Below, piece after piece: positions 12,741 to 39,234 of a stretch of 64,000 bases of DNA. Both the position numbers and the translations under genes were made by a program. The notes beneath the pieces were generated by a model. It was not told the origin of the DNA, did not search any database, and worked only from the letters and a program-made list of their open reading frames with translations. Source of the DNA: Rubripirellula sp. (GTDB lineage: Bacteria > Planctomycetota > Planctomycetia > Pirellulales > Pirellulaceae). Positions within the stretch are counted from its first letter, which is position 1, and each line of letters starts with the position of its first letter. The stretch covers positions 8,096,001-8,160,000 of the forward strand of contig OZ244207.1 of assembly GCA_965216875.1 (NCBI GenBank). The letters are read 5' to 3'.

Positions 12741-14702
12741 ATGCTGCTCCGCTTCGTTTTTCTCTTGGCAATTGCTGCCACGTTCACCATCGATGCGTCC
12801 ATTGGATGGACCAACGACCGACCCAATTTGATTTGGATCAATGCCGAAGACATGAGCCCGCATCTGGGGTGCTACGGGCATCCCGACGCGGTCACTCCGA
12901 ACATTGACGCGCTCGCGAAACAAGGTGTTGTCTTTGACAACGCTTTTGCGACGGCCCCGATTTGCTCGCCCGCGCGATCCTGTTTGGCGACCGGCCTTTA
13001 TGCGACCAGCTTGGGGACTCAGCACCTGCGTTGTGAGGTGTCGATTCCCGATCGGGTTGTGCCGCTTGCCACCCGCATGCGCGAGCTCGCCTACTTTTGC
13101 ACCAACACGGGCAAGTCGGATTACAACTTTGATCCCACCGGGATTTGGGACGTTTGGAACAACGATCTCGCACCCTGGAAACAACGCGAAAAGGACCAGC
13201 CCTTTTTTGCCTTTATCACGGTCGGCGAGACACATGAAGGCCGAATCAACACCGCCGAAAAGTACTTACAGGCGACAAAGGACTTGCCCAAGTCTTTGCT
13301 GCACGATCCTGCGAAGGTGACGATTCCGCCGTTTTACCCCGACACGCCCGAGATTCGCCGGATCTTTGCAGGCATGCATGACTTGGCGACTGTCTTTGAT
13401 CGCAAGATCGGACGGTTGGTTGCCCAGCTGGAAGCGGACGGAGATCTCGACAACACGATTATCTTCATTTTCGGAGATCACGGAAACGGATTGCCTCGTT
13501 ACAAACGTTGGCTCACCGACTCGGGATTGCGCGTGCCGTTGGTCGTCTATGTACCCGACCAGCACCGATCGCTCGTTCCCGCGACCCTTGGTTCGCACAC
13601 CGAGCGTCTGGTTAGCTTTGTCGATTTTCCGGCAACCGCGATGGCGCTGGCGGGCGCCGACGTGCCGGAGATCTTTCAAGGCATTCCGTTCATGGGTGAG
13701 GCAATCGCGGATCCGCGAGAATACGTGTTTGGGGCTCGTAGCCGAGCCGACGACATGTACGATGTGGCACGGAGCGTGTCGGATGGGCGTTACATCTACA
13801 TACGGCATTTCATGCCGCACTTGCCCTATATGCAAAAGTCGGTGATCAACGGCGATCGCAAGGATGCAACAAAGGAGCTCCGCCGACTTCACCACGCGGG
13901 CAAACTTGAGGGGGCCGCAGCCTTGGTGTGGGCTCCGCGAAAACCTGTCGAAGAGTTCTATGATCTCAAGACCGATCCGAACGAATTGGTGAACCTTGCT
14001 GATTCGCCCGCACACGCTCAGCGCAAAGGCGAGCTTGCGGAACGTCTTCGTGATTGGATTCTCAAGCACCGCGATTCCGGACTGTTGCCCGAAGCGGAAT
14101 ACCATCGCCAAGCACAGCTGACAGACACAACGCCATTCGATGTCGTGCAAGAGGAAGCTCACTTCGACTTGTCCGCAACGTTGGACGCGGCCTGGAACGT
14201 TGGCGACAACGAAGTCGCGATTGGCGAGATCGCCAAAGGTCTCGAACATCAAGAAGTCGGTGTGCGTTATTGGTCGGCAGTTGCGTTGTTGGATCGATTT
14301 CGTACGGAAGAAACGGCTTCATCCTCAGCCTTATCACCATTGCATCAGGCACTCGAAGACGAGAGCCCGAGTGTCCGTATTGCGGCTGCCGAAGCGATCC
14401 TCGAAGTCTCGACCGAAGGCGATTCGCTGACGACCGACGCGTTGGATTGTCTCGGTGAGAGCTTGAAGAGTGAATCACCGACGGTCGCACTGCAAGCGGC
14501 GCGAGCGATCGCACTGCAAGGTGTTCGCGCGAAAGCGTTGGTCCCAACAATGAAGCAGGTCGTTGGCAGCAACCTGTCAGCGCCCGGTTCGAGACGAACC
14601 TACAAAGACTTCAACTACGCTTCGTTCACAGGTTGGGCATTGGAAACGGCATTGACCGAATGCGGCGAGGCCGAGTTTGTGACGCAAATCAACAACAGAT
14701 GA
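12741..14702 (+). CDS. Formylglycine-dependent sulfatase with C-terminal HEAT repeats
   Basis: RPNLIWINAEDM, TPNIDALA, CSPARSCLATG (CxPxR), GDHG, YDLKTDPNELVNLA, HEAT-like tail; signal peptide MLLRFVFLLAIAA. Confidence 0.9.
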   Translation: MLLRFVFLLAIAATFTIDASIGWTNDRPNLIWINAEDMSPHLGCYGHPDAVTPNIDALAKQGVVFDNAFATAPICSPARSCLATGLYATSLGTQHLRCEVSIPDRVVPLATRMRELAYFCTNTGKSDYNFDPTGIWDVWNNDLAPWKQREKDQPFFAFITVGETHEGRINTAEKYLQATKDLPKSLLHDPAKVTIPPFYPDTPEIRRIFAGMHDLATVFDRKIGRLVAQLEADGDLDNTIIFIFGDHGNGLPRYKRWLTDSGLRVPLVVYVPDQHRSLVPATLGSHTERLVSFVDFPATAMALAGADVPEIFQGIPFMGEAIADPREYVFGARSRADDMYDVARSVSDGRYIYIRHFMPHLPYMQKSVINGDRKDATKELRRLHHAGKLEGAAALVWAPRKPVEEFYDLKTDPNELVNLADSPAHAQRKGELAERLRDWILKHRDSGLLPEAEYHRQAQLTDTTPFDVVQEEAHFDLSATLDAAWNVGDNEVAIGEIAKGLEHQEVGVRYWSAVALLDRFRTEETASSSALSPLHQALEDESPSVRIAAAEAILEVSTEGDSLTTDALDCLGESLKSESPTVALQAARAIALQGVRAKALVPTMKQVVGSNLSAPGSRRTYKDFNYASFTGWALETALTECGEAEFVTQINNR

Positions 14703-23968: not shown

Positions 23969-24171
23969 TAGTGGATTGGGGCAGGTCACGAATCGTCGAA
24001 TTGAATGGACGAAACGGACAGGCCTTCAATCAAGGATTCGTTCAGCAAACCGTAGCTTTCCCAGCGAGCACATCACGATTTGATCCAGCCATTCGACGAG
24101 GCATTTCCTGAGTCAATGGTGGCTTAATCCAACCAACCGTTACCACTGAACTACGGTTTCCCCCACCTCGC

Positions 24172-24770
24172 GGGGACAGAGCACCAACCTCCGCAACCAT
24201 CCTCTCCATTCCACAGGGACAGAGCACTACCCGCAGAATCCGCGCGCATTCCACGGGGACAGCGCATTCCACGGGGACAGAGCACCAATCGGAGTCCATC
24301 CACGGGGACAGAGCACCAATCGAGCCACCGGAGTCCATCCACGGGGACAGAGCACCAATCGAGCCACCTGTTCGAGATTTAGTAGACCCACCATGGACAA
24401 TCGACAAAAAATGGGGGCATTCCGATATGGGGACCGACTGGTGGCCTGTCCCCAAGGAGTGTGGCCCTGTCCCCAAGGAGTGTGGCTCTGTCCCCAAGGA
24501 GTTTGGCTCTGTCCCCAAGGAGTTTGGCTGACTCACCGGACTGAGCACCGGGCGAACCGCAGATTGACACTGATAGACACAGATAACAACGCGCTGAATG
24601 CGTTCGCTGGCGTTCATCTGCGGTTTCCTAGCCTCCACATAAGATTCCGGCGACACAAAAGATTTCGAGATTGCGTTTCCATAACACAGCGAGAAAACCT
24701 GGGCGAGAGGCCTGGCAAGAGGCCTAGGGACAGAGCACGAGGCCTGGCAAGAGGCCTAGGGACAGAGCAC
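24172..24770. repeat. Left array of GGGGACAGAGCAC motifs with tandem micro-duplications
   Basis: Forward motifs at 24172, 24216, 24255, 24273, 24304, 24343, 24727, 24759; four reverse copies in 20-21 bp tandem units 24441-24523; exact duplications of 18, 39 and 32 bp. Confidence 0.9.
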
Positions 24771-24926
24771 GAACGATGTTTTAGCCACGGCAAGCGTTGC
24801 AATTGAAACTGACGAATGGCTCTGGGCGTGGCTCCAAACGCATGGTCCACGTTTGCGCTCTTTTTCATGCACGTGGCGCGCATCGATAGCGGTCGGATGC
24901 AGTTAGCCGACAAGGAGAAGGTGCAG

Positions 24927-25991
24927 CTATGCCGCTTGTTGAGATGGCAAGAGACGCCTTGCCGATGGCGTCAATCGAAAACGGCGACCGGTTTCGTTGC
25001 CTCGCATGCAGTCGACTCGATCGCAACGGCCAGCGACGATGCGGAACGTTTTGCTGAAAGTTTGCACCAGTTCGAGCCAACTACCCGATTCGATTCCGAG
25101 CCGCTGAAGAATTGGTGGTATCGACGTTGGCGTTCTACCGGGTTTGTCTTCGACCACCTGGCGAGCGGTCCAATCGAGCAATTCGATGTAGCTTGCCAGA
25201 TCGATCGCAAGGAACCCTTTGTCACTGCATCTCGAATCGGCTTGGCTTGGAACCGGGCCGGTTTCGCCCGAACGCTCGTCGAGCGTTAACGGTGCGAGGA
25301 AGTCTGCAAGCTGTTTACGTCTTGTTTCAGCGGGTAGTGTTGTCTGCTTGAGTTCCGCGTTGATCCGGCGTTGAATGGACGTGTGGTCACTTGCCTCGAG
25401 CGTTTCGGCGATCGCGGCACGAATCGGATTCAGCTCAACATACGCGGCGCAGGCGAGCAGTGACTCTTCATCGACGATGCGGATTGCTTTGAAACGATCT
25501 TGCCAAAACCGACCAGTCTCCTCTTCCTCACGATTGGCTCGCTGTGCGACACGCTGATTGAGCAGACGCATCCACCACGAGATGTCGGAAAGCCGCTTGC
25601 GAATCTCGGCGAGTTTGACCGGGCATTTACGAATCATGTTCAATTCCGATTCGCTTGGTCGAGCCGGTTTCCCGTCGACGTTTCGATGAGGACAGATCAT
25701 CAGCCACCGACGGGCTACTTCGGTGTCGTCCCATGTAGCGACTGCGTCGGGTCGCGTCCTCAGGATGAGGTGATAGTGATTCGAGAGGATCGAAAAGCAA
25801 AGCAGGTCAATTCCAAAGTGTGCTGCAAAATGTTCCAGCAGTTCTTCGATCCACACTTTCCGGTGGTCAAAATTCTTGCCGCTCAGTTCATCTTGGCCAA
25901 AGAGAAAGCACCTACGAACGGTGCGATTGATGACGTGCGCGACGTTGATATCGCTGGGATCAAACACGTCACGGCGAGAAGACCTAGCCAT
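24927..25991 (-). mobile_element. HUH/Y1 tyrosine transposase (RAYT/TnpA-REP-like, IS200/IS605 superfamily)
   Basis: MARSSRR, HVINRTVRRCFL, ILSNHYHLIL (HUH), GRFWQDRFKA, AYVELNPIRA (catalytic Tyr), SDHTSI. No tnpB adjacent. Confidence 0.9.
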
Positions 25992-26090
25992 CGAAGAGCC
26001 CCTAAGACAGACGTCGGCAACTGGAGCCGCGTCTTGAAGAGCCAGTTTGCAGAAGTCGATTCGATCGTTCTTCGATCTCGACAGGGTTTC

Positions 26091-26119
26091 ATTTGACGCC
26101 TGAACGAATCAAGTGTCAA
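26091..26119 (-). promoter_or_regulatory. Possible sigma70-type promoter of the transposase
   Basis: Minus strand TTGACA (26119-26114), 17-bp spacer, TCAAAT (weak -10), about 100 bp upstream of the ATG. Confidence 0.35.
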
Positions 26120-26137
26120 TAACATCATATAGAATGA

Positions 26138-26309
26138 GTGCTCTATCCCCGTTGTATTTCTCCCGTTGTATTTTGCGCCTTGTTGAAGGACGGGAGCTTG
26201 GGGACAGAGCACCAATACGAAGGCTCGGGAAGAGATGAAGGTTTTGCTGCTGCTCACATCATTATTCTCACCTGCTCTCTCCCCGTTGATTCGTGCTTGG
26301 TCTGTCCCC
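26138..26309. repeat. Middle cluster of the GGGGACAGAGCAC motif (inverted pair plus variants)
   Basis: GTGCTCTATCCCC 26138-26150, GGGGACAGAGCAC 26200-26212, TGCTCTCTCCCC ~26273, GGTCTGTCCCC 26299-26309; 14-bp-period duplication CCCGTTGTATTT 26148-26173. Confidence 0.8.
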
Positions 26310-26436
26310 AGTGACTTACAACCAGGAGACTCCCTTTGTATCGGATGTCTTGAAGCCGGAAAGTGAGGCGGATAGTCTGAAATGGACGAGGCGATGCAGG
26401 CACAACCGCATCTTCAGGGCGGGGGCAATCAGGGAA

Positions 26437-27288
26437 ATGAAAACGATGACAGTTGTTCGTTATCTCGCGTTGGTTTTGATGATATCGTTGGGCGCATTGG
26501 GGGTTGCCGACGACTCTTCCGCTAAGCCGCAGGCTGAGGAGGACAATGCCTCCGATGCACTCCGCATTACGACGGCAGCGGCCGAGCTTTACGAGTTTGA
26601 GCTTCCTGGCGAGCCCTTGCGAAAGCTCAAGTTGCATCCTCGATCGATCCTCCGGTGGTCCAATCCGGTTGCTGGCGAAATCTATGGAAACGTGTTCGTT
26701 TGGACGCTGGACGGGCGGCCGACCGTTGTCGGTTCCATCTATCAGTGGTACTCGCCAATGACGCACGGTTCTCATGAGTTCCATTCTCTCACCACGGAAA
26801 CGCTTGAAGGGGAGAGAGAAGGGGCTGTCGTTTGGTCGACAAGCGAGCCTGGAATTGAGTGGCGATCGGTTCCGGACCAGCCAATGGTGGCCGATTCTCA
26901 AGCCACCCGAACTCGACAACTCAGGGCGTTGTCTCGACGATTTCAAGTACGGAAGACTGACCGCGAGGAGGAGACGCGTGAGTTGCGGTTGCTTACTCAG
27001 CCGCTCTTCCGCTACGGCGACCCTGATTCGGAAGTCATCGACGGTTCGCTTTATGCATTTGTCCAGGGCACCGACCCAGAGGTGCTCCTGTTGGTCGAAG
27101 CCATCAAGACGGCTGAAGGCGTCGAATGGCGATACGCCCTGGCACGCATGAACAGTGTGAAGTTCGTGGCTCGCTATCAAGGGCAAGAAGTGTGGCGAAA
27201 GGAACGTAGCGTATGGAAAGACGTCAAGAGCGGTCGCCAACCATACACGTCGTTCGGCCCATTCCGAGGCAATCTGGCAAACCGTTAA
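26437..27288 (+). CDS. Secreted hypothetical protein (passenger inside the repeat island)
   Basis: AGGGA RBS-like site, signal peptide YLALVLMISLGALGVA, motifs LRWSNPV, ELRLLTQPLFRY, FVQGTDPEVLL. Confidence 0.75.
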   Translation: MKTMTVVRYLALVLMISLGALGVADDSSAKPQAEEDNASDALRITTAAAELYEFELPGEPLRKLKLHPRSILRWSNPVAGEIYGNVFVWTLDGRPTVVGSIYQWYSPMTHGSHEFHSLTTETLEGEREGAVVWSTSEPGIEWRSVPDQPMVADSQATRTRQLRALSRRFQVRKTDREEETRELRLLTQPLFRYGDPDSEVIDGSLYAFVQGTDPEVLLLVEAIKTAEGVEWRYALARMNSVKFVARYQGQEVWRKERSVWKDVKSGRQPYTSFGPFRGNLANR

Positions 27289-27297
27289 GTGGGCTCG

Positions 27298-28084
27298 GAG
27301 CTAACGCGGGGACGAGCTAACGCGGGGACGAGCTAACGCGGGGACAGAGCACGAACGTCTCCGTCTCGATTGCCCTCTAACATGAGCGACTGCATGGGAA
27401 GAATTGACAAAAAGATGGAGGGCAAAAAGATGAGGAAAAAGAGGAATGGGCGTAGCTCGTAAACTGTCGGTGCTCTGCCCCCGGATGGCGCGCCGTCGCG
27501 GGGACGGTTGGCGTCGCGGGAAAATGTGCTCTGTCCCCGTTGCAGGGAGAGGGGGCTCTGTTCCCGGATGGCACGTTCGAACGGTCGCTGGTTCGCGTCA
27601 AGAACCAAACTTGGGGACAGGAACCAAACTTGGGGACAGAGCACTTCAACCAAACTTGGGGACAGAGCACTTCCTAAGATTTGGCGTGATAGCAATCGTG
27701 GTGCTTCGAGGATACCTCCTACTTCGGTGCGCGTCTTGGACGACAGGTTGGCCGAGAAAAACACGACAAGACGCAAAGAGCTACCGAGAGAACTCGCGAG
27801 CGTTCGTGCTCTGTCCCCGTCTCGATTGCCAAAAGATGAGGAAAAAGAGGAATGGGGATAGCTCGTCAACTGTCGGTGCTCTGTCCCCGTTGCAGGGAGA
27901 TGGGTGCTCTGGCCCCGGATGGCGCGCTGAATAATTGCTGTCTATCTGCGTCTATCCGTGTTTATTGGCGGTCTATTTTGCCCGCTTCGAACTAGAGAAA
28001 TCAAATATCTCGGAGTACCTACACCGCAGGTTAGCCACGGACAGTGCTCTGTCCCCGTCGCAGGGAGATGGGAGCTCTGTCCCC
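27298..28084. repeat. Right array of GGGGACAGAGCAC motifs with duplicated modules
   Basis: GAGCTAACGCGGGGAC x3 (27298-27345); AACCAAACTTGGGGACAG x3 (27603-27665); reverse motifs at 27526, 27806, 27876, 27904, 28044, 28072. Confidence 0.9.
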
Positions 28085-28169
28085 GAATGGCGCGGATGGT
28101 GTCAGTGATCCATGGGGACTCGTTGCCTCGTCCACTACCAAAGAGACGCCATGAAAAACACGATAGCGT

Positions 28170-30038
28170 CTACAATCGCTCGACGTAGACGTAGTACGCA
28201 CCGCAAATTGGGGTTCCTTGATGGTCGAGGAAGGTTGCTTGGAGTTCGATGTCTTGCGGCGCTAGGGCTGCAACCGTTGAAAACGACTGCATGTCTTGGT
28301 TTGGCAAAAGCTCTATGCTCGTTTCTGCGATGGTCAGCGTTGCCGACGAGATGGGCAGCGATTTGCCTTGGACATAAACGCCGTCAGTCACTTTCGTCGC
28401 TGGAAGACTGGCGGTTAAGGTGAGTTGCGATTCACGGGGCCAACGACGTAGTTCAAATCGATAGCGTCCGGCTTGGGCGACTCGCACATGGAAGACACCA
28501 ATTTTGCGCTCGCCACGACGCACTTGGAGTTGCTGGTCGACAAAAACGTCGAGCCACTCACATGCAGTCAGCAGCATTGGGTTTTCGGCATCATCGCCAA
28601 TGACCACACGTTGCGGCGTCATGACGTCGGTTCTCACACCCTCCCACCAACGGTCAAGATGTGCACGCATCTTGGCAACGATTTCAGGATGCATGGTGGC
28701 GACGTCGTGGTCTTGGTGTGGGTCCGATGCGATGTTGTAAAGTCTGCGATTCTCGAGCAGTCGCCAGTTCTTCCATAACACGCCCGCACCATCTTTTTGT
28801 GGGATTGCCGGATTGCCAGCGGTGTAACTCACTTTGAACTGTGGCATTCGGCTGTAGTTGACCACGAGCATGCGATCATCAAGTGAATCGCGGTGGCCAC
28901 GAAAGATGGGTGCGAGGCTTTCGCCATCCAATTGGTCGGGAACGGAGGCGATACCGCAAAGGTCCGACAACGTCGGCAGAAGGTCCTGCACGTGACTGAG
29001 TTGGGCAATCTCACGCGGCTTGCCAATAGGGCCGTTTGGCCATCGAATGAAACAGGGAACGCGATGTCCGCCTTCCCACAATTGTGTTTTCTTTCCTCGC
29101 ATCCCTGCGTTGAAATAGTCTTGCCCCATGGTGCTGCCGTTGTCGGTAAGAAACACAACGATGGTGTTTTCGAACAATGCCGACTCTTTCAGAAACGCAT
29201 CGAGTCGGCCCACATTGGCGTCGATGTTGGCTCCCATTGCGAGAAAACTGACCAGGGATTCGATCTTCCCTTTCGACAAGTGCTTCACGACATCGGGATG
29301 TGCTTTGATCGATTCGCGGATTGGCGCACGGTAGTGGTTGGGAACGAACCAGGGCCAGTGGGCGGCATTAAGCGCGATGTACGTAAAAAACGGTTGGTCA
29401 GCGTCTTGTCCCATCCACTTGTTGGCTTCTTCGAAAAAGACATCGGTGCAATAGCCGTCGTACCGTTGTCGAGTTCCATTGTGAATGTACGTGTCGTCGA
29501 AGTAATCGTTGTCCCAGAAGTCGGGTACGCTATTGATGTGCGAGGTAGGAAACCAAAGCGTTTCATCGAACCCGCGGTCGCTGGGCCGAAAGGGATAGTT
29601 GTCACCTAAGTGCCACTTTCCAAAAATCCCGGTCCGATACCCCGCCTCTTGGAAAACGTTGGCAAGCGTTTTCAAATCGTGTTTGAGAAGTGTGCGTCCG
29701 CTGCTGACGTTGATCGCCGCATTTCGAAACGCGTCGACGCCGGTCAGCAGTTGACCACGGGTCGGCGTGCACATCGGAGCGACATGGAAGTCGGTCAGCC
29801 GAATCGATTGGGACGCCAAGTGGTCGATGTTGGGCGTCTGTGCGATCGGATTGCCATTGCACGAGAACTCACCATAACCTTGGTCGTCGGTCATGACGAC
29901 AATCACATTGGGACGCGGACCACTCGCATCCAGCTTCACTTGATGTTGAGGTAGCGGCTGTTGGGAGGGCAACTGTTGGCAAACAAACGAACTCGCGCAG
30001 AAACACACCAGCGCAATAATGTGTCGAAGGATTTGCAT
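28170..30038 (-). CDS. Arylsulfatase (secreted)
   Basis: RPNVIVVMTDDQGYG, APMCTPTRGQLLTG (CxPxR), GKWHLG, TDNG, WEGGHRVP; signal peptide MQILRHIIALVCF. Confidence 0.92.
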   Translation of the reverse strand: MQILRHIIALVCFCASSFVCQQLPSQQPLPQHQVKLDASGPRPNVIVVMTDDQGYGEFSCNGNPIAQTPNIDHLASQSIRLTDFHVAPMCTPTRGQLLTGVDAFRNAAINVSSGRTLLKHDLKTLANVFQEAGYRTGIFGKWHLGDNYPFRPSDRGFDETLWFPTSHINSVPDFWDNDYFDDTYIHNGTRQRYDGYCTDVFFEEANKWMGQDADQPFFTYIALNAAHWPWFVPNHYRAPIRESIKAHPDVVKHLSKGKIESLVSFLAMGANIDANVGRLDAFLKESALFENTIVVFLTDNGSTMGQDYFNAGMRGKKTQLWEGGHRVPCFIRWPNGPIGKPREIAQLSHVQDLLPTLSDLCGIASVPDQLDGESLAPIFRGHRDSLDDRMLVVNYSRMPQFKVSYTAGNPAIPQKDGAGVLWKNWRLLENRRLYNIASDPHQDHDVATMHPEIVAKMRAHLDRWWEGVRTDVMTPQRVVIGDDAENPMLLTACEWLDVFVDQQLQVRRGERKIGVFHVRVAQAGRYRFELRRWPRESQLTLTASLPATKVTDGVYVQGKSLPISSATLTIAETSIELLPNQDMQSFSTVAALAPQDIELQATFLDHQGTPICGAYYVYVERL

Positions 30039-30116
30039 GACATTCGCTCCAATCAATGCGCTCACGCCAGCGTGGGATGTATACCCGCTCGGCATGCTGA
30101 CGTGACGCGTGTTTTG

Positions 30117-31166
30117 CTAAGTACGAGGTGGTTGGCTGACGAGTGATCTTTGAGCTTCAATGACACGAATCGCTTGTTCGTCACTCATCTTCAGGTAGCG
30201 ATCACGTCCATTGGAATCGGGGTGGAACTGCGTGAAGCCGTCTTCGTCGACGGTAACGGTGCCTCGTGGTGAGAGGTCGAAATACGAATCATTGGGGCGG
30301 ACCGCATAGAGAACACTCGTCAAATCCCAAGTGGGGCGATCGTGGTTCGGGCCGCTGTGCAGCAGGTAGGATTCGCGGACGATGTGATGGTGGCGATATC
30401 GAAAATCGCGGGCGATGCTCTCGCGCGGATAGGGGGCTGCGATTCCAATAAGAAAGTCGCTCCAAATCACCGGCACGTCAGCAGGCCAGTTGGAGGCGAA
30501 CCGTTGCATCGACCCGATGCCGTTGCGCACGTTGGCTTCAAGGTAATGGTCGTTCTCTCCAACTGGGCGAAACGCTCCCGCCATCACACTGACAAGTCGT
30601 ACCTTTTGACGAACCAATTCGATTCCCGATAGCGGGCTGAGGTCGTCGGGTTCCGATGCGATCAGGCTGGCAAGGTTTGCCGCCAGTCCGACCTGAATCA
30701 CCGTGATCGAACGGTCATCGGCTGACGCAAGGACGGACCGAAGCAGTCGGGTCGCCTCGGGGGCGGCACCGGTTTTCAAATCATGTGGATAACGCCATTG
30801 GTCGCCATCTTTGTGTTCGACCAGCTTGAGGTATTTGCTTTGGCGGCGCTGGGCATCTTTGGTCACACCGATTGGTATATCGGGGCGGCCGTAAAAGGTG
30901 TTGACCGCATCGACAAAGGGAGCCGCCAGCGGATTGATTTTCGACACCGTCACCGCCTCGATCACACACTCCCCGCGGTCGGCCAATGTGTGCAGCATTG
31001 CCAACGCGAGTACATCATCAACATCACCCGTGATGTCGGTGTCGAAAACGACGCGGACAGGGGACACGACTGCATCCTCGGCGACCGCAAGGTTTCCAAT
31101 TAAGGCGAATGACAGTAGCAAACTGAGCCACGTCACAAATGAACGATCATGTTGATGGTCAAACAT
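30117..31166 (-). CDS. Nucleoside hydrolase family protein with signal peptide (paralog 2)
   Basis: VVFDTDITGDVDDVLAL (Asp-rich Ca-binding motif), VMAGAF, EANV, RPTWDLTSVLYAV. Confidence 0.85.
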   Translation of the reverse strand: MFDHQHDRSFVTWLSLLLSFALIGNLAVAEDAVVSPVRVVFDTDITGDVDDVLALAMLHTLADRGECVIEAVTVSKINPLAAPFVDAVNTFYGRPDIPIGVTKDAQRRQSKYLKLVEHKDGDQWRYPHDLKTGAAPEATRLLRSVLASADDRSITVIQVGLAANLASLIASEPDDLSPLSGIELVRQKVRLVSVMAGAFRPVGENDHYLEANVRNGIGSMQRFASNWPADVPVIWSDFLIGIAAPYPRESIARDFRYRHHHIVRESYLLHSGPNHDRPTWDLTSVLYAVRPNDSYFDLSPRGTVTVDEDGFTQFHPDSNGRDRYLKMSDEQAIRVIEAQRSLVSQPPRT

Positions 31167-32118
31167 TGTCTCTTCTCCAGCGGCTTCTTAGGGCGTCGAG
31201 CAGTACGGCAACGACGATGACGGCTCCGGTGATGATTTGCTTGTTTGCATCGGAGACGCCGATCTGGGCGAGCCCGGTTTGCAGCACTGCAATGATCAGG
31301 ACACCAATGAACGAACTGATCACATTGCCGCGGCCGCCCATCAGACTTGTGCCACCGATCACGCAGGCGGCGATCGCTGAGAGTTCAATTCCAATCGCGG
31401 CATTCGGATCGGCCGACGACAGTCGCGAAGTTTGGGCCAGCCCCGCCAATCCGCAAAGCAATCCGCTGATTGCGAACACCGTGATCGAGTAAGGAGCGGT
31501 TCGGATGCCCGACATGCGAACCGCTTCTGCGTTGGTGCCGATCGCGACGCAGTACCTTCCGAAGATCGTTCGCGTCAGAAGGAATTGACCAGCAAGCACG
31601 GCTGCAATGGCCAACACAAACGCTGGTGAAACCATGATGCCAGGCAGCGGCTGGCCGATCGGTTCCACTGCCGATCCTATGTACTTTGTCTGAGAATCGG
31701 TGACGAGCTTTGTCGCGCCACGCGCCATCTCGAGCATGCCGAGTGTCACGATGAACGAAGGAATCCGAAAAGCGATCGACACACAACCACTTGCGAGACC
31801 ACAGAGGGCACCGGTCATCAAACAAAACGGAATCGCGAGTCCGAGCGACCAACCTCGATCGACCATCAGCGATCCAAGGACGGCCGAAGACAAGGCGAGA
31901 ACTGAGCCGACTGACAAATCGATTCCGCCCACGATCAAGACCAGGGTCATGCCGACGGCGATGAAGGTGAGGTCGGGGATCTGGTTCGCGATCGAAACGA
32001 GCGTCGATTGTTGAAAGAAATTCTCGCTCTTCAAACTGAAAACAGTGACCATTCCTGCAAGCACAAGCAGCAACGCACCGTAGTCGGTCGCGAGGTTCAT
32101 GAGTTTCTGGCGATTCAT
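31159..32118 (-). CDS. rbsC: Ribose-type sugar ABC transporter permease
   Basis: GGIDLSVGS, IPSFIVTLG, AIGTNAEAVRMSGI, IELSAIAACVIGGTSLMGGRG. Confidence 0.88.
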   Translation of the reverse strand: MNRQKLMNLATDYGALLLVLAGMVTVFSLKSENFFQQSTLVSIANQIPDLTFIAVGMTLVLIVGGIDLSVGSVLALSSAVLGSLMVDRGWSLGLAIPFCLMTGALCGLASGCVSIAFRIPSFIVTLGMLEMARGATKLVTDSQTKYIGSAVEPIGQPLPGIMVSPAFVLAIAAVLAGQFLLTRTIFGRYCVAIGTNAEAVRMSGIRTAPYSITVFAISGLLCGLAGLAQTSRLSSADPNAAIGIELSAIAACVIGGTSLMGGRGNVISSFIGVLIIAVLQTGLAQIGVSDANKQIITGAVIVVAVLLDALRSRWRRDNV

Positions 32119-33659
32119 GCCGGCCTCCGATCAAGGTAGCCGGAAAACGCCGCTTCCATCATTCGTTTTTGCGACCAATTGTCGCGCGTAAAGGTCTCGA
32201 CGATCCGACCATCGGACATGACGGCGATGCGATCGCATACCTCGAGAAGTTCATCGAGATCGCTGCTGACCAAGAGGATGCCTTGGCCCTGTTCGGCCAG
32301 CCCGTCGATGAGTTGGTAGATTCGACGTCGCGCCGCAACATCAATGCCGCGTGTTGGTTCATCCATTAGGAAGACTTGTGCGTCGCGAACCAGCCATTTC
32401 GCGATGGCGACCTTTTGCTGGTTTCCGCCACTGAGCGTTCCGATGCTTTGTTCAATGTTCTCGCAGCGGACTTCGAGCGAGTCGCATTGCTCGCGTGTTG
32501 TTTCGGACTCGGCGTTCTGGCGCGCGATTCCGAACGCAGAAAACCTCTGCCACATCGATGCGATGGTGGTGTTGAAACGAATCGGTTTTGAAAGGAGCAA
32601 GCCGTTCTGTTTGCGATCTTCGGTGACCATCGCAAGCCCAGCAGAAACAGCTTGGTTGGGATGACGAAACCTTCTTGGAGACTCATCACGTTGAAAGGAG
32701 ACGCCGCCTGCGCTTGCGGCGTCAGCACCAAAGATCAAACGTAGCAACTCGGTTCGCCCGGAACCAACCAGTCCGGCGATCCCGAGTTTCTCTCCACGAT
32801 GCAGATCAAAAGAAACGTCATGGACTTGGCATCCACTCGAGCGAGCGTCCCCGCAGAGCCCTTCGACGCGAAAGATGACATCGTCGCGTCGGCAATACGA
32901 TGTGTGCTTGGCGTGCGTAGCGGCCGATTCACCGCTCATCAATTCGACCATGCGCTGCGTCGAACAATCACCGGGATCAAAAGTGCCAACGAGTTGTCCA
33001 TCACGCAACACGGAAATCTGATCCGCAATGCGGGCCACTTCATCCAATCGGTGGCTGATATAGATGATGCCGACGCCGTCGTCTCGCAAATGATCCAACC
33101 ATTGAAAGAGCGATTCCGATTCAGCTGGGCTGAGTGCAGCGGTCGGTTCATCCAGAATCAACAAACGACATTGGCGCATCAGCGCGGCGCAGATTTCGAT
33201 CATCTGCTGCTGGCCAACGCCGAGTGATGCGACCTTGGACAGGGTTGAAATGTGAGTCAGCCCGAACCGGTCCAAGGCATCACGTGCTCGATCGTGAAGC
33301 CGCTTGGTGCTGAGGATGCCGGCTGTGTTGGGCAGGCTCGTCAGCAGCAAGTTCTCGGCAACCGTCAGCGTGTTGATGAGGTTTAACTCTTGCTGGACAA
33401 TTTCGACGCCGACCGACTCGGCATCACGTTTGCTCGCAGGTTGATAGACCCGATCGTCGAGCAGCATGCAACCTGACGAGGGTGCAACGAGCCCGGCGAT
33501 CATGCGGACAAGTGTGCTCTTCCCGGCACCGTTGGCACCCAGCAATGCATGCACTTTGCCTGGCTGAAAGCCAAGGCTGCATTGATCGACGACGGTCGCC
33601 GCGCCGTAACGTTTTGAAAGCCCCTGCAATTCAAGCAAGTTGGAACTTGTTGCGCTCAC
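32115..33659 (-). CDS. rbsA: Sugar ABC transporter ATP-binding protein (two NBDs)
   Basis: GANGAGKST, LDEPTAAL, ISHRLDEV, GLVGSGRTE, LSGGNQQK, DEPTRGIDV. Confidence 0.9.
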   Translation of the reverse strand: MSATSSNLLELQGLSKRYGAATVVDQCSLGFQPGKVHALLGANGAGKSTLVRMIAGLVAPSSGCMLLDDRVYQPASKRDAESVGVEIVQQELNLINTLTVAENLLLTSLPNTAGILSTKRLHDRARDALDRFGLTHISTLSKVASLGVGQQQMIEICAALMRQCRLLILDEPTAALSPAESESLFQWLDHLRDDGVGIIYISHRLDEVARIADQISVLRDGQLVGTFDPGDCSTQRMVELMSGESAATHAKHTSYCRRDDVIFRVEGLCGDARSSGCQVHDVSFDLHRGEKLGIAGLVGSGRTELLRLIFGADAASAGGVSFQRDESPRRFRHPNQAVSAGLAMVTEDRKQNGLLLSKPIRFNTTIASMWQRFSAFGIARQNAESETTREQCDSLEVRCENIEQSIGTLSGGNQQKVAIAKWLVRDAQVFLMDEPTRGIDVAARRRIYQLIDGLAEQGQGILLVSSDLDELLEVCDRIAVMSDGRIVETFTRDNWSQKRMMEAAFSGYLDRRPA

Positions 33660-34630
33660 TGCTGTAGCGTCTCCGCAGTGATCAAGTCGACGGGAGTTTC
33701 TACGTCTGCAGGAGCTGAGCCCGGTTCCGCGAGCATCTTGAGTGCCGCCTCGATTCCGAACACTGCAAGTTGGTCGCCGTGTTGGTCTGCTGTCGCGAGG
33801 ACTTTGCCTTCCTTGATTGCCGTTTGCACGGCTGAGATGTTGTCAAATCCGACGATCATCACGCTGTCGCTTTTTCCCGCACTCTTGACCGCTGCGACAG
33901 CCCCTAAGGCCATTGAGTCGTTGGCGGCAAGGATTGCTTTGGCTTGTGGGTGTTCGCTCAGCATCGAGGCAGCGATCGTGTTCGCTTTGCTCATCTCCCA
34001 TTCGGCCGATTGGCTGTCGGCGATCGTCACTCCCGCGTCATTCATTGCGACCTCGAATCCCTCACGCCGCTGCTGGCCGTTGAACGAAGTGCGGATCCCT
34101 TCCAGCACGAGGACCGAGTCGCCTTTGTTGAGCTGGTCGGCTAAGTGATCACCAACCTTTTTTGCGCCGGCTTTGTTGTCAGGGCCGACGAAGGGAATCG
34201 AAATGCCTTCCTGACTTAGCACACTGGCATCGAGTCGATTGTCGATGTTGACTACGACGACGCCCGCATTTTGAGCCTTGCGTAGTGCTGGGACGAGTGC
34301 TTTCGAATCAGCCGGTGCAATCACAATGGCGTCGACGCCACTGGCGACCATTTCGTCGACCAACGCGACTTGGCGGCTCAAGTCGCGTTCGTCCTTGATC
34401 CCATTGATTACGAGATCGTACTCGCCTGCGTTTTCCGCTTGATGCGAACGCGCTCCTTCAGCCATGGTCGAGAAAAACTCGTTAGCCAACGACTTCATGA
34501 TCAACGCAACTCGCGGCTTTGTGTCCGACGAGTCCGCGGTTTGGTTCGGCTTGTCACCGGGAGTGCTTGAGTTGCTGTTGCAGCCGACCAGGCACAGAGC
34601 AACGAACAGTAGGGATAAGTTTCGGTTCAT
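33656..34630 (-). CDS. rbsB: Sugar ABC substrate-binding lipoprotein
   Basis: Lipobox LVGC, KSLANEFF, IAPADS, FVGPDN, AANDSMALGA, VGFD. Confidence 0.85.
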   Translation of the reverse strand: MNRNLSLLFVALCLVGCNSNSSTPGDKPNQTADSSDTKPRVALIMKSLANEFFSTMAEGARSHQAENAGEYDLVINGIKDERDLSRQVALVDEMVASGVDAIVIAPADSKALVPALRKAQNAGVVVVNIDNRLDASVLSQEGISIPFVGPDNKAGAKKVGDHLADQLNKGDSVLVLEGIRTSFNGQQRREGFEVAMNDAGVTIADSQSAEWEMSKANTIAASMLSEHPQAKAILAANDSMALGAVAAVKSAGKSDSVMIVGFDNISAVQTAIKEGKVLATADQHGDQLAVFGIEAALKMLAEPGSAPADVETPVDLITAETLQQ

Positions 34631-34642
34631 TCTTTCTCTCGC

Positions 34643-35590
34643 TTAATTCGCACCTTCATTGTGCGTGCATTGGGCTATGATTTCGGAGCGTGTCGGAAGA
34701 CTATGCTGGGCGCCACTGCGCGATGCGGCGATAGAACCGGCCGCGTTACCAAAGCGGATCGCCGCTGACAAATCGTTGGCCTGAGCCCAGTGGACGGCCA
34801 GTGCTCCCACGAACGCATCCCCAGCGGCCGTTGCATCGATGGCATCGACGGGGAACGGTTGGACCATTTCCAACTGGTCGCCGTCAAACAGCAATGTGCC
34901 CTCGGCCCCCAAGGTGATGGCGACTGCAGCAGCGCCGCGCGCGTGCAGCTTGCGTGCAGCCGCTTCGATTTGGCTTCGAGTTTCGACGGGCTCGCCAATC
35001 AATGCTGCGGCTTCCGTCTCATTGGGACAAATCAAGTCAACGTGCAATAGCTGTTCGGGCCATTGGGGAACCGCGGGGGCCGGATCAAGGATCACGCGCG
35101 TGTCGTTAGCTTTGGCAACCTCGATGGCGAGCAGAACGGAGTCGATGGGAACTTCCAATTGCAGCAGCAAGACATCGGCAGCGGCGATCAACGATTCGTG
35201 TTGCACGACATCGCTTGGCTTCATGCAGCCGTTGGCTCCAGGGACAACAATGATCTGATTCTCGCCATCGTCAGCGACAGTAATCATTGCGACTCCCGAC
35301 GGTCCCGACGATGTCTGGATCGAATCGACACCGATGCCTTCGCGCTGTAGTCCATCGACAAGTTGACCGCCATAGAGGTCACTACCAACGCGGCCAATCA
35401 TCGAAACGGTTGCGCCCGCGCGGCTGGCAGCCACCGCTTGGTTGGCCCCTTTTCCGCCAGGGATTTCCGCAAACGAGGTTGCCGTCAGTGTTTGCCCGGG
35501 TAATGGCAAAGATTGACAACAGGCAACAAGATCGATGTTGATCGAACCAAGCACTACGATGTTGACGACTTCGTCCTGGTTCTCCATCAC
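34643..35590 (-). CDS. rbsK: Ribokinase
   Basis: GSINIDL, PGGKGANQAVA, LLQLEVP, PNETEA, DATAAGDAFVG. Confidence 0.93.
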   Translation of the reverse strand: MMENQDEVVNIVVLGSINIDLVACCQSLPLPGQTLTATSFAEIPGGKGANQAVAASRAGATVSMIGRVGSDLYGGQLVDGLQREGIGVDSIQTSSGPSGVAMITVADDGENQIIVVPGANGCMKPSDVVQHESLIAAADVLLLQLEVPIDSVLLAIEVAKANDTRVILDPAPAVPQWPEQLLHVDLICPNETEAAALIGEPVETRSQIEAAARKLHARGAAAVAITLGAEGTLLFDGDQLEMVQPFPVDAIDATAAGDAFVGALAVHWAQANDLSAAIRFGNAAGSIAASRSGAQHSLPTRSEIIAQCTHNEGAN

Positions 35591-36645
35591 TGCTCCGAAT
35601 TGGTGGCCAGGTTGGGCGGTTGGCTCGATAATTGAACCAGCGATTCGGTCGTTCTCGGTTTTTGTTCGTCTCGAATGATCAGGTATTGATCGCGTCCTTT
35701 GTCGATGGCTTCGAATGTGGTCAAGCCGTCATCGGCAACATGAACACGGCCGGGCGAGGAGAGGTCAAAGTAGGATCGGTCGGGGCGTATTGCGTACAAG
35801 ACCGATGTCAGGTCCCAGGTGGGGCGGTCGTGAGGCGGCGGGTTGTACAGCGTGTAGGCTTCGGCGAGTGGGTGATGTTCGACGTAGCGATAGTCTTTCA
35901 AAATGCTCTGGTGCGGGTAGGTCAAGTTCTTTCCGATTTCAAACCCGCTCCAAACGATCGGCGTCGGCCAGTTTGCAGTGATGTACTTTGCGGACGGAAT
36001 GTCCTTGATGATGTTGTATTCCTTGTGGTCGTAGAGATGCCCCGTGTCCCCGCGGATCTGACGAAAGGCACCCGCCATGATGGAAAGGAGTCGCACCTTC
36101 TTTTTGACCAACGCCGCTCCGCTCAGGGGACTGTGATCGTCACCGCCCGACTTCAAGAGGTTTGCGAGGTTGGTTGAAAAACCAACCTGTGCAATCACCA
36201 CCGCGCCGTCGTCGGCCGCAGCAAGTGTTTGTCGGAGCACGTCAACGGCGTCGGGAGCATCCTCGCCCGATTTCAAATCGTGTGGGTAGCGGAGTTCGCC
36301 TTGGTCTTGTTTGATTGCAAGTCCGTTGAATTTTCCCTCGTGCGGAGTCACCCCACTACGACACACGCCGACGGGAATGGATCCGCGTCCGTAAAACGTG
36401 TTCACCGCATCGGCAAAGGGCGCGGCATATTCGTGATCTTTGGTAATCGTCACCGCCAACAGTTCACATTCGCCTCGAGATTGCAATGCGTGAATCATGC
36501 CAAGGGCTAAGACGTCGTCACAATCATTGCCAATGTCGGTGTCGAAAATGATCGGAACCGGCGCGCCGTCTTCGGCCATGGTCGGCGGTGCATTGAAAGC
36601 CATGAGCAACAACGCGACGAGGGAAAGCCAGTGGTGCGTTTTCAT
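35587..36645 (-). CDS. Nucleoside hydrolase family protein with signal peptide (paralog 1)
   Basis: IIFDTDIGNDCDDVLAL, IMAGAF, KEYNI, RPTWDLTSVLYAI; clear similarity to 30117..31166. Confidence 0.87.
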   Translation of the reverse strand: MKTHHWLSLVALLLMAFNAPPTMAEDGAPVPIIFDTDIGNDCDDVLALGMIHALQSRGECELLAVTITKDHEYAAPFADAVNTFYGRGSIPVGVCRSGVTPHEGKFNGLAIKQDQGELRYPHDLKSGEDAPDAVDVLRQTLAAADDGAVVIAQVGFSTNLANLLKSGGDDHSPLSGAALVKKKVRLLSIMAGAFRQIRGDTGHLYDHKEYNIIKDIPSAKYITANWPTPIVWSGFEIGKNLTYPHQSILKDYRYVEHHPLAEAYTLYNPPPHDRPTWDLTSVLYAIRPDRSYFDLSSPGRVHVADDGLTTFEAIDKGRDQYLIIRDEQKPRTTESLVQLSSQPPNLATNSEQ

Positions 36646-36678
36646 CGATGGTGATCTCCTGGTGCCAGTCCAATCCGG

Positions 36679-37710
36679 CTAGCGTGGTGGTTTGCCAATC
36701 GAATCTCGGTGTCGTACATCGACACCGATCTCGTGAAGGCGTTTACGTGAGGCTCGGCCGCCCTGCAGCTGTTTGAGAATGAGTTCGGCGGCGCGTTGCC
36801 CGAGCGATTCGACGTCTTGGGCGACGGTCGAAATCGGAACCTGCATCAAGTCGGCGAATGGTGAATCGTCAAATGCGACAATGGATAGATCGTCGGGCAC
36901 ACTCCGCCCCGCTTCGGTTGCGGCTCGCAACGCGCCGAATGCGTTGGGCATGCTAAACGCAAAGAGAGCGGTCAGTTCGGGATGCTCATCAAGCAGTTGT
37001 GAGGCCGAGGCGTAGCCTGATTCAGCGGTGAAGTTGTCGCCACGAATGAAATCAGGATTCAGTGACTCGCCGACACGTTCCAGCGCATCGCGAACACCGC
37101 AGAGCCTCGCTTCGTTGGGGAGCGTTCCGGGGAGTCCCTGCAGCACACCGATCTGGCGATGCCCTTGAGCCGTCAACAATCGCATCGCTTTTTGTGCGCC
37201 TGCCTCATGCTTTGACGTCACCTGCAAGAAATCGGATGACGGAAATGTTCGATCAACCAGCACCATCGTGGCACCTGATTGTTCGGCCTGTTTGAGGTGT
37301 TCCTGTTCGACTCCGACAGGACAGATGACGATCGCTTCCACTTCGCGAGCAATCAACTCGGAAAGCAACTTTGCCTCGCGCTGCGTTTCCTCTCGACTGT
37401 CAGCCAGCAGTACTGAATAGCCCGCAGCCTCCGTCGCCAAGGTGACTTCGCGCGCGATTGCGGAAAAGAAGGGGTTCGAAACATCGGGGACAACGATCCC
37501 GATCAAACCGGTCTTCTGCAGCCGAAGTGATCGGGCCACCCGACTTGGCCGAAATCCAAGTCGCTCCGCCGCAGCCCGGACGGTGGTGGCGGTTTCCTCG
37601 CTAATTCGGTACGCCTCGGCTTGGCCATTGAGTGAACGCGAGGCGGTTGAAACGCTCACGCCGGCGGCTGTAGCGACGTCGTTTAAGGTGACTCGGGTGG
37701 CTGCGGTCAT
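36679..37710 (-). CDS. LacI-family transcriptional regulator
   Basis: VTLNDVATAAGVSVSTASRSLN HTH, ARSLR, NPFFSAI, VPDDLSIVAFDD. Start at ATG 37710. Confidence 0.93.
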   Translation of the reverse strand: MTAATRVTLNDVATAAGVSVSTASRSLNGQAEAYRISEETATTVRAAAERLGFRPSRVARSLRLQKTGLIGIVVPDVSNPFFSAIAREVTLATEAAGYSVLLADSREETQREAKLLSELIAREVEAIVICPVGVEQEHLKQAEQSGATMVLVDRTFPSSDFLQVTSKHEAGAQKAMRLLTAQGHRQIGVLQGLPGTLPNEARLCGVRDALERVGESLNPDFIRGDNFTAESGYASASQLLDEHPELTALFAFSMPNAFGALRAATEAGRSVPDDLSIVAFDDSPFADLMQVPISTVAQDVESLGQRAAELILKQLQGGRASRKRLHEIGVDVRHRDSIGKPPR

Positions 37711-37733
37711 CGCTTGTTCAGTAAAAAACACGT

Positions 37734-37751
37734 TGCACAATCGTTTGTGCA
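37734..37751. promoter_or_regulatory. LacI-type operator
   Basis: TGCACAATCGTTTGTGCA, near-perfect palindrome with central CG, about 24 bp upstream of the LacI start. Confidence 0.75.
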
Positions 37752-38072
37752 TCGTATTCGACGGAGGTTTGGCTTTCAACCCTGCTGCCGATCGCTAGGC
37801 GGCCGAGAGGACGTTTTGCTTCCTGAAATGCATTTGCGGCAACGGAAACGGCTCGCTTCGATCGTCAAGGACGTTACAAACAATCAACGCGGAAAAAACA
37901 GTGAAGGCAATCGTTGCGACGCCTCAGATCGGGTACTGAAACAGAGCCAAACAAGCTCTATAATGAACGTCTGTCGACAAGTCTCGAAGACGAATGGCCG
38001 CTCTTGGTTTTTGAGCGGGTATCTCGCCGGGTTCGAGCGCAGAAGAGCCTCCCGCCTTTAGAAACACGGCCA

Positions 38073-38345
38073 ATGTCCACTTCCCAACGCTGTGCGAACC
38101 TGATCTTGGACGAAACCTTTTTGGAGGTGCGTGCCAAACTCTTGGAGGTTGCTGCGACACTCGATCGGATTGACCGGTCATCCGATGAGGGCCAGCCGCT
38201 CGACGATGCATCGGGCAAACGCCGCGCGAAGCTGGACGATGCGATTCGGATTCTGCTTAGTGAAGGACCCGACCGAGCGGAACGACTGCAAAAACTCTTC
38301 TCGCGAGAGTATGAGCCCGAGTGGCGAACAACGATGAACCTTTAG
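38073..38345 (+). CDS. Small helical hypothetical protein
   Basis: ILDETFLEVRAKLLEVAATLDRIDR..DRAERLQKLFSREYEPEW; directly precedes the TatD-like gene. Confidence 0.7.
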   Translation: MSTSQRCANLILDETFLEVRAKLLEVAATLDRIDRSSDEGQPLDDASGKRRAKLDDAIRILLSEGPDRAERLQKLFSREYEPEWRTTMNL

Positions 38346-38400
38346 TCATCACCCGTCGAATTTTTAGACCACCAAACCTTGCGCCACCGATTGAGCTGTC

Positions 38401-39234
38401 ATGGACTACATCGATCCCCACATTCACATGGTTTCTCGAATCACGGACGACTATGCGACGCTTGCTCGCATGGGGTGCGTTGCGATGAGCGAGCCAGCGT
38501 TCTGGGCAGGTTTTGATCGCGGGAGCGTTGACGGGTTTCGTGACTACTTCCACCAGTTGACTGATGTCGAACCCAAACGTGCCGCTCAGTACGGCATTCA
38601 GCACTTCACTTGGCTTTGCATCAACGCCAAGGAAGCTGAAAACGTGTCGCTGTCGCGCGAAGTGATCGCGATGATTCCTGAGTTTCTCGATAAGCCCAAT
38701 GTGTTGGGTATCGGTGAGATCGGTCTGAACAAGAATACGAAGAACGAAGCGACGGTCTTTCTCGAGCACGTCGATCTTGCGGTCAAGTACGACCAATCAA
38801 TCTTGATTCATACTCCGCATCTCGAAGACAAGTTCCAGGGGACGAAGATGATCCTGGACATGTTGTGTGACGACTCGCGGATCGATCGTGGCCGCGTGCT
38901 TGTCGATCACGTCGAAGAACACACGATCGCCGAAGTGCTTGATCGCGGTTTCTGGGCCGGAATGACTCTTTATCCGGTCACCAAGTGCACGCCCGAAAGA
39001 GCTGTCGACATGATCGAAGCCACCAATGGGGAGAGATTGCTCGCCAATTCGGCCGGGGATTGGGGGCCAAGCAAGCCGACAGCCGTGCCGGATTTGATTT
39101 TCGAAATGCGTCGTCGCGGCCACAGCGAATCGCTGATCCGGAAAGTGGTCTACGAGAATCCGATCGAATTCTTCTCGCAGAGCAAGAATTTTCATTTCAC
39201 GCCAAGAGATGCGGGGCTGGAACCAGCAAACTAG
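38401..39234 (+). CDS. TatD-related metallohydrolase (EboB-like)
   Basis: IDPHIHMVSRITDDY, EPAFW, GIGEIGL, IHTPH, VDHVEE, NSAGDWG.S.P.AVP. Confidence 0.85.
   Translation: MDYIDPHIHMVSRITDDYATLARMGCVAMSEPAFWAGFDRGSVDGFRDYFHQLTDVEPKRAAQYGIQHFTWLCINAKEAENVSLSREVIAMIPEFLDKPNVLGIGEIGLNKNTKNEATVFLEHVDLAVKYDQSILIHTPHLEDKFQGTKMILDMLCDDSRIDRGRVLVDHVEEHTIAEVLDRGFWAGMTLYPVTKCTPERAVDMIEATNGERLLANSAGDWGPSKPTAVPDLIFEMRRRGHSESLIRKVVYENPIEFFSQSKNFHFTPRDAGLEPAN

Follow-up and report, generated by a model that had tools for sequence, protein, structure and literature searches.

What reaction surrounds a single transposase gene with stacked copies of one short motif, and is the outcome a mobile element or an array remodelled in place? 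The question is posed by positions 24172-28084 of a 64,000-nucleotide (nt) stretch of the genome of Rubripirellula sp. (contig OZ244207.1, positions 8,096,001 to 8,160,000; hereafter the window), where a gene for an HUH/Y1 tyrosine transposase lies amid three clusters of a 13-nt motif in both orientations (24172-24770, 26138-26309 and 27298-28084), just as an initial annotation of the letters alone had described. That annotation saw in the motif a reusable junction between shuffled unique segments, i.e., a self-remodelling array rather than a simple insertion sequence (IS). Judged from the comparisons below, the element is IS-like with stuttering ends, its terminal motifs being copied repeatedly together with a few bases of flank, and the enzyme may itself be the builder of these arrays.

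The motif and the geometry of its duplications

With up to two mismatches allowed, the 13-nt motif is matched 27 times in the window; 26 of these matches fall inside 24172-28084, 12 of them exact. As only 1.67 matches are expected by chance (maximum 6 in 100 shuffles), the single match outside the locus, at 13013, is at chance level. The motif had been noticed only at this locus, but the whole genome holds 42 exact copies in 10 clusters, three with a transposase gene and seven gene-less, some of the latter far from any transposase. Clustering around homologous transposase genes, the expectation attached to such a genome-wide count, is what we found: 20 of the 42 exact copies lie within 2.5 kb of three close transposase paralogues, against 0.09 expected. 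The sequence GGGGACAG matches GGGGWSAS, the consensus of TIRtrons, and this motif class, which the initial annotation had named, is indeed described in the text of PMC3733652. The innermost copies, 24758 (+) and 26138-26150 (-), are both directed into the transposase gene, so that the proposed inverted ends stand, with the copy near the 3' end of the gene beginning at 24758 and not at 24759. The inverted stretch common to both ends is about 13 nt long, and no motif hairpin was found in any of the four ends folded (z ~0 in 4/4).

The three close paralogues (100, 86 and 78% amino acid identity, the locus gene included) each have inward-pointing motif ends, and further relatives in the genome comprise a 43% paralogue and a 3' remnant. 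The 43% paralogue (G000 6116275-6120780) is accompanied by arrays of a variant motif, GGGGACAGGCA, which is also mixed into several of the gene-less arrays.

Adjacent motif copies were compared for the reach of the duplicated unit outside and inside the motif, after removal of 21 of the 80 genome loci, which were truncated or reached a contig end, and of one duplicate. Among 288 adjacent pairs, 202 repeat at least 5 flank positions (the first G of the motif, G1, counted) and 105 are clean duplications. A strict filter (adjacent copies, overlap of 0-4 nt, duplicates removed, junctions with extra bases or more than 4 nt of overlap left out) retained 51 units from 26 of 74 loci, of which 45 start 6-12 nt outside G1 (median 8.5), compared with a null mean of 15.1 and a maximum of 29 in 20,000 draws. 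Where a unit starts is independent of its length (slope 0.07), while its end scales with length (slope 0.93) and ranges from +6 to +49; microhomology or overlap amounts to 0-1 nt in 35 of the 51 junctions. Among 80 metagenome loci taken as a second set, 10 yielded a total of 12 units; the start lies in the same interval in 10 of these units (null 2.6, maximum 8), and 11 are on the inward strand. The genome under study holds 10 clean duplications at 1122 core sites, eight starting in the interval, and each of eight control cores, G-rich ones and five cores of repetitive extragenic palindromes (REPs) among them, gives 0-2. An earlier flank-repeat test, recurrence of 6-mers, was replaced by this junction test after the REP controls scored equally high. 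The duplication geometry thus supports the motif as a re-used junction. As for the shuffled unique segments, many of the stretches between copies are not unique but repeat the flank together with part of the motif; shuffled motif-bounded modules are present in the third array.

Spread among relatives and change in a close strain

The element is matched in 24 of 40 relatives, where four families (7, 7, 5 and 9 copies) have genes that are 98.6-99.9% identical. Their distal flanks have no 16-mer in common in 155 of 160 comparisons. Because near-identical copies occupy unrelated sites in relatives, we conclude from sequence that the family moves like an IS; this multi-copy spread rests on four related families, and the copies in the genome under study are old (78-86% amino acid identity). 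The initial contrast with a simple IS is therefore not upheld, given these 5-9 copies per relative at unrelated sites. Every family copy has a ragged end array of its own, and the motif sequence varies with the transposase family. At 47 of 68 loci the innermost motif on either side is directed inward; in three of the four multi-copy families (L031-L049; G020, G002), however, the two ends carry the motif in direct orientation, and stuttering is seen there too. Besides short stutters, the right ends of L038, L039, L042, L046, L056 and L057 show duplications of 100-300 nt of the terminal region, and the 3' end of L090 repeats a near-perfect 21-nt unit about seven times, probably amplified further by slippage.

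Movement also appears to leave traces of the old surroundings. Copies at different sites often have the 5-10 nt just outside the motif in common; in G001, for instance, 9 of 9 left ends agree in 5 nt, and in the present genome the 3' remnant (G000 5624835-5625111) has 7 nt of outer flank in common with paralogue 2 at 8048142. At the right ends of G020 (L033, L035, L036), two copies carry 239 and 269 nt of host DNA from the site of the third, including the 3' end of a PP2C gene, and each carried stretch is closed by a new motif. Of 117 spacers, 32 have a match of at least 16 nt elsewhere in the genome. A CRISPR-like origin by capture was considered for the spacers and rejected: in this genome all matches of at least 19 nt belong to multi-copy repeat families, and the others, of 16-17 nt, are near chance.

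For the locus itself, a close strain is available in run X5 of another study, with 9 differences in the 1843 nt compared, which belong to the HEAT gene and the first array. Its pieces cover the HEAT, transposase, middle (26446-27288) and sulfatase genes, and all four are kept. Length changes fall almost entirely into the arrays: 13 of 14 lie in 1436 nt of array, one in 830 nt of other non-coding sequence and none of those kept in 5415 nt of coding sequence, a count that leaves out three joints inside the sulfatase gene (sides of 21-32 nt, likely paralogues) and becomes 11 of 12 if three adjacent 1-2 nt gaps at 27314-27328 are, as is probable, one event. Four changes are flank-anchored and reach about 8-11 nt outside the motif. 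In X5 the forward stack at 24172-24355 contains one additional unit (-8 to +8), and 99 nt of it are missing; the right end has two extra 13-nt units (-8 to +4, counted as one insertion); the 14-nt left-end unit is absent; and the third array shows a 111-nt skip, the absence of a 9-nt flank unit and small gaps. The strain alignment suggested at the outset thus finds differing arrays between constant genes, at this locus alone, and no array variant was seen within the population.

How the arrays may have been built

We regard as the probable explanation that the arrays are flank-plus-motif duplications, arising when the enzyme nicks some 6-12 nt outside the motif, host polymerase extends from the nick and the strand is resealed, in an IS-like TIRtron. 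Cleavage by an HUH enzyme yields a 3'-OH and a 5' end bound to the tyrosine (PMC8266576, in its text), and the chemistry of nicking, extension and resealing has been modelled for the bacterial interspersed mosaic elements (BIMEs) of E. coli (PMC3333891, Fig. 7B); as set out there, BIME amplification is close to our proposal, which does without a second cut. TnpA would bind the motif, nick the GGGG strand 5' of it and stay linked through Tyr184 to the motif-bearing 5' end, while host polymerase, starting from the 3'-OH, would copy a variable length of the element. The new 3'-OH could then attack the tyrosine link and add one unit, and repetition of this aborted rolling-circle start would build a stack. 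Were a round completed, or were a 3'-OH from another site to attack, the element would be moved along with some of its former flank, usually a few bases and at times hundreds, and such moves would yield mosaics and gene-less arrays. Units made by nicking, extension and attack on the link would start within narrow limits, vary freely in their end and require no homology, as seen.

Several points weigh against this explanation. The start is a spread (standard deviation 2.5 nt) with no single position and no clear dinucleotide, unlike the C|T or C|A cut by the assayed RAYTs described in the text of PMC8266576. At the locus itself 4 of 6 clean units start within 6-12 nt, the other two at 13.5 and 18, and the direct-repeat families are looser (5 of 9). 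Only 105 of the 288 adjacent pairs are clean, and only 11 of 48 pairs in this genome have at least 4 flank bases in common, so that most local spacers are unexplained mosaics. The peak of end positions at +7/+8 is partly a detection limit, and kin loci are not independent samples. The three close paralogues are old (dS 0.9-2.4), and neither an empty site nor a circle junction was seen. X5 consists of short-read contigs, no piece of which spans the whole stretch, the direction of its changes is unpolarised, and its differences do not prove enzyme action, since host slippage can add or remove existing tandem units. Taken together with these changes, this copy appears to be an old resident whose ends are still changing.

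Among the alternatives, a staggered double nick comes first. TnpA would cut both strands (at about -9 and at a variable position), and fill-in with end joining would duplicate the overhang, resembling a target-site duplication without an insert. This predicts the same unit geometry and needs little microhomology, and the inverted ends of the 47 loci imply work on both strands; however, a search for Ku, positive in the B. subtilis control, found no such gene in this genome, which is 99% complete, the second nicks would have to spread from +1 to hundreds of nt, and the direct-repeat families stutter as well. We therefore consider it rather unlikely.

We also judge it unlikely that the arrays reflect host-made instability, in which the G-rich motif or a bound protein stalls replication forks and slippage or template switching duplicates DNA without enzyme catalysis. 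Tandem units are unstable in general, 34 of the 51 junctions have 1-4 nt of microhomology, and gene-less arrays lie far from any transposase. Yet the control cores are nearly free of duplications, the starts hold a fixed place with respect to the motif and show strand polarity, and the motif changes along with the transposase family.

A third possibility is a domesticated, REPtron-like system, in which a stationary enzyme diversifies the arrays for the host (e.g., by tuning neighbouring genes) and the middle gene is cargo. The low dN/dS (about 0.07), the age of the paralogues, the same locus in X5 and the seven gene-less clusters are in its favour, but the near-identical multi-copy spread in relatives, the patchy presence, the syntenic site in both congeners, which lacks the element, and a middle-gene family unlinked to the element make it quite unlikely. 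That family has 15 paralogues here and 15 in one congener, while 35 of 40 relatives are without a match; the gene at 26446-27288 is the only one of the 15 that adjoins a motif, and around its four closest homologues, drawn from 150 genomes, no motif and no transposase lies within about 1.5 kb. The gene at first called a passenger is thus, as far as these comparisons go, probably host DNA and not cargo. Finally, an assembly artefact, i.e., ragged repeats from mis-assembled reads, is hardly credible even though short tandem repeats trouble assemblers, as 0.98 of the words of the region were recovered in four runs from two samples, pieces from X6 (24170-24320, 24361-24511) and X8 (27647-27843) are identical to the assembly, and equal geometry recurs in dozens of independent assemblies.

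Returning to nicking by the enzyme, we tentatively raise a wider possibility, that of a widespread, unassayed HUH branch for which an 8-13 nt non-hairpin motif acts as a polar rolling-circle origin, the cut being set by distance (about one helical turn outside) and not by sequence, and the tyrosine-linked end being joined to any 3'-OH. If true, a single reaction would account for the stutter, for both the inverted and the direct end layouts, for mosaics that lack a gene and for the capture of flank. The arrays would then log nicking events in their order, and the enzyme would be a DNA ligation tool guided by the motif but indifferent to sequence. The duplication geometry predicts the strand, distance and product of the cut.

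The locus, its enzyme and known systems

Table 1 Features of the element and its surroundings in the window (array borders drawn from motif positions)
Feature	Position	Strand	Remarks
Right end: inward motif copies 24726 and 24758 with re-copied flank	24700..24770	+	X5 comparison
HUH/Y1 transposase, TnpA-Y1 subclass 2.3 type, 354 amino acids	24927..25991	-	NHYH, WQ, YVELNP, TS; HuH-to-Y distance 110
5' leader and left end, closed by inward motif GGGGATAGAGCAC (26150-26138)	25992..26150	-	82% and 74% identity to paralogues up to the motif, unrelated beyond
Left-end stutter unit, 14 nt (flank plus first Gs of motif)	26151..26175	-	Missing in strain X5
Six forward copies stacked, flank-plus-motif duplications starting ~10-14 nt outside motif	24172..24355	+	
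Four reverse copies stacked, 21-nt unit starting 11-12 nt outside motif	24441..24516	-	Skipped in X5
Different dispersed repeat between arrays	24547..24639	.	80-87% matches at three other genome sites
Small gene-less unit: one forward and two reverse copies	26200..26309	.	
Unnamed, probably secreted family gene; nearest motif copies both directed away	26446..27288	+	Without Pfam/NCBIfam match
Third array: 16-nt unit x3 (start -10), 19- and 26-nt units (start -10/-11), shuffled motif-bounded modules	27298..28084	.	
14.4-kb block, missing in both congeners	23990..38400	.	Synteny

The leader of about 160 nt upstream of the transposase gene is common to both paralogues as far as the motif, and no match to the sigma-70 promoter consensus was found in it. 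The dispersed repeat at 24547-24639 also occurs in G000 near 4936619, 5743217 and 1597264, often in or beside motif arrays; at 28114-28138, immediately beyond the third array, is a GTAG-type REP of which the genome has about 130 copies; and three shorter Y1 genes with repeats of their own are found at G000 5390647, 4787954 and 1539106. In both congeners the HEAT gene adjoins a gene for a 277-amino-acid protein, which begins here at 38401, and the 14.4-kb block thus separates the two. The element sits at the left edge of this block; it was considered as a bracket of the block and rejected, as the motif was not seen at the right edge. The block encodes a sulfatase, two nucleoside-hydrolase-like proteins, a ribose-type ABC transporter, a ribokinase-like protein and a LacI-type regulator, all names except sulfatase being judged from translations.

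The transposase reading frame is intact, and dN/dS against the two paralogues (0.06-0.08) indicates purifying selection. It passes the Pfam model Y1_Tnp (24.8 bits, cut-off 23) and fails the NCBIfam RAYT model NF047646 (43.8, cut-off 80). The AlphaFold model (pLDDT 94) has a helical insert at residues 81-134, and its best structural match is E. coli TnpA_REP (4ER8; Foldseek E 5e-4, Z 12.8, root-mean-square deviation 2.7, 160 of 165 residues), compared with Z 7-8 for IS200/IS605 Y1 TnpA structures. A PDB sequence search with the transposase alignment gave 0 matches, and no helix-turn-helix (HTH) family was matched at E 0.1. The catalytic residues H72-Y73-H74 and Y184 stand within the signature of subclass 2.3, i.e., N71-H72-Y73-H74, WQ, YVELNP with Y184, and T204-S205 at the noted distance, and by these motifs and this spacing the protein fits TnpA-Y1 subclass 2.3. 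The marks of subclass 2.1 (a core of about 111 amino acids without the 55-amino-acid insert; a C-terminal HTH) are absent. TIRYTs and subclass 2.3 are common, a search at E<=1e-30 giving 1,089 representative proteins.

The element shares HUH-Y1 chemistry and fold with IS200/IS605; it differs in having no subterminal hairpins, no tnpB, Y---NP in place of Y---Q, 354 instead of about 150 amino acids, and ragged ends. IS91 and ISCR elements likewise have a polar origin and carry flanking DNA of variable length, which resembles the origin and carriage proposed here, but they use distinct oriIS and terIS sites and an IS91-family enzyme, whereas one motif serves both ends here and the fold is TnpA_REP-like.

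In the TIRtrons, according to the text of Di Nocera, De Gregorio and Rocco 2013 (PMC3733652), a Y1 gene stands between GGGGWSAS inverted repeats that also occur elsewhere in the genome as dimers or clusters. The locus has the HUH tyrosine transposase, inverted repeats that are not GTAG REP hairpins, the GGGGWSAS motif and the genomic clusters; that text describes neither stuttered duplications nor a cut position, spread in many copies, forms with direct repeats or the capture of flank. For the 26 TIRYTs placed by Quentin 2018 (PMC6006769, main text), the subclasses are 2.1, 2.2 and 2.5, none being 2.3. As characterised there, subclass 2.3 has NHYH, W[E], YV[DE]LNP and TS, a HuH-to-Y distance of about 110, a length of about 325 and several copies per genome, and our enzyme is alike in motifs, distance, long protein and copy number. 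The same text names Chromatiales and Alteromonadales as main hosts, reports that REP-like flanks were not found and names no end motif, whereas here a planctomycete carries GGGGWSAS-type ends with stutter arrays. The element class, the enzyme subclass and the chemistry are thus already in print. In the open-access literature we found no account of GGGGWSAS ends in subclass 2.3, of the stutter geometry, of direct-repeat forms or of flank capture, though the supplements of PMC3733652 and PMC6006769 could list 2.3 ends; the texts of these two papers do not identify the ends, cut site or transposition route of subclass 2.3.

The E. coli REPtron (TnpA_REP with its BIMEs) offers the closest solved fold, the nick-extend-reseal model and arrays that vary between strains, as presented in the texts of PMC3333891 and PMC8266576. 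The REPtrons of RAYT groups 2/3 have GTAG-footed palindromic REPs beside the gene, and none flank it here; relative to the accounts of E. coli, there is neither GTAG foot nor hairpin, the units are ragged and their start is defined by distance and not by C|T. REPtrons, as portrayed in these sources, do not move as a unit, whereas the present element family appears to. If our explanation is right, the arrays would be traces, left in vivo, of the nick-extend-reseal model that was put forward in 2012 for the amplification of REPs and BIMEs, and HUH-Y1 enzymes would have a third way to move DNA, neighbouring host DNA included.

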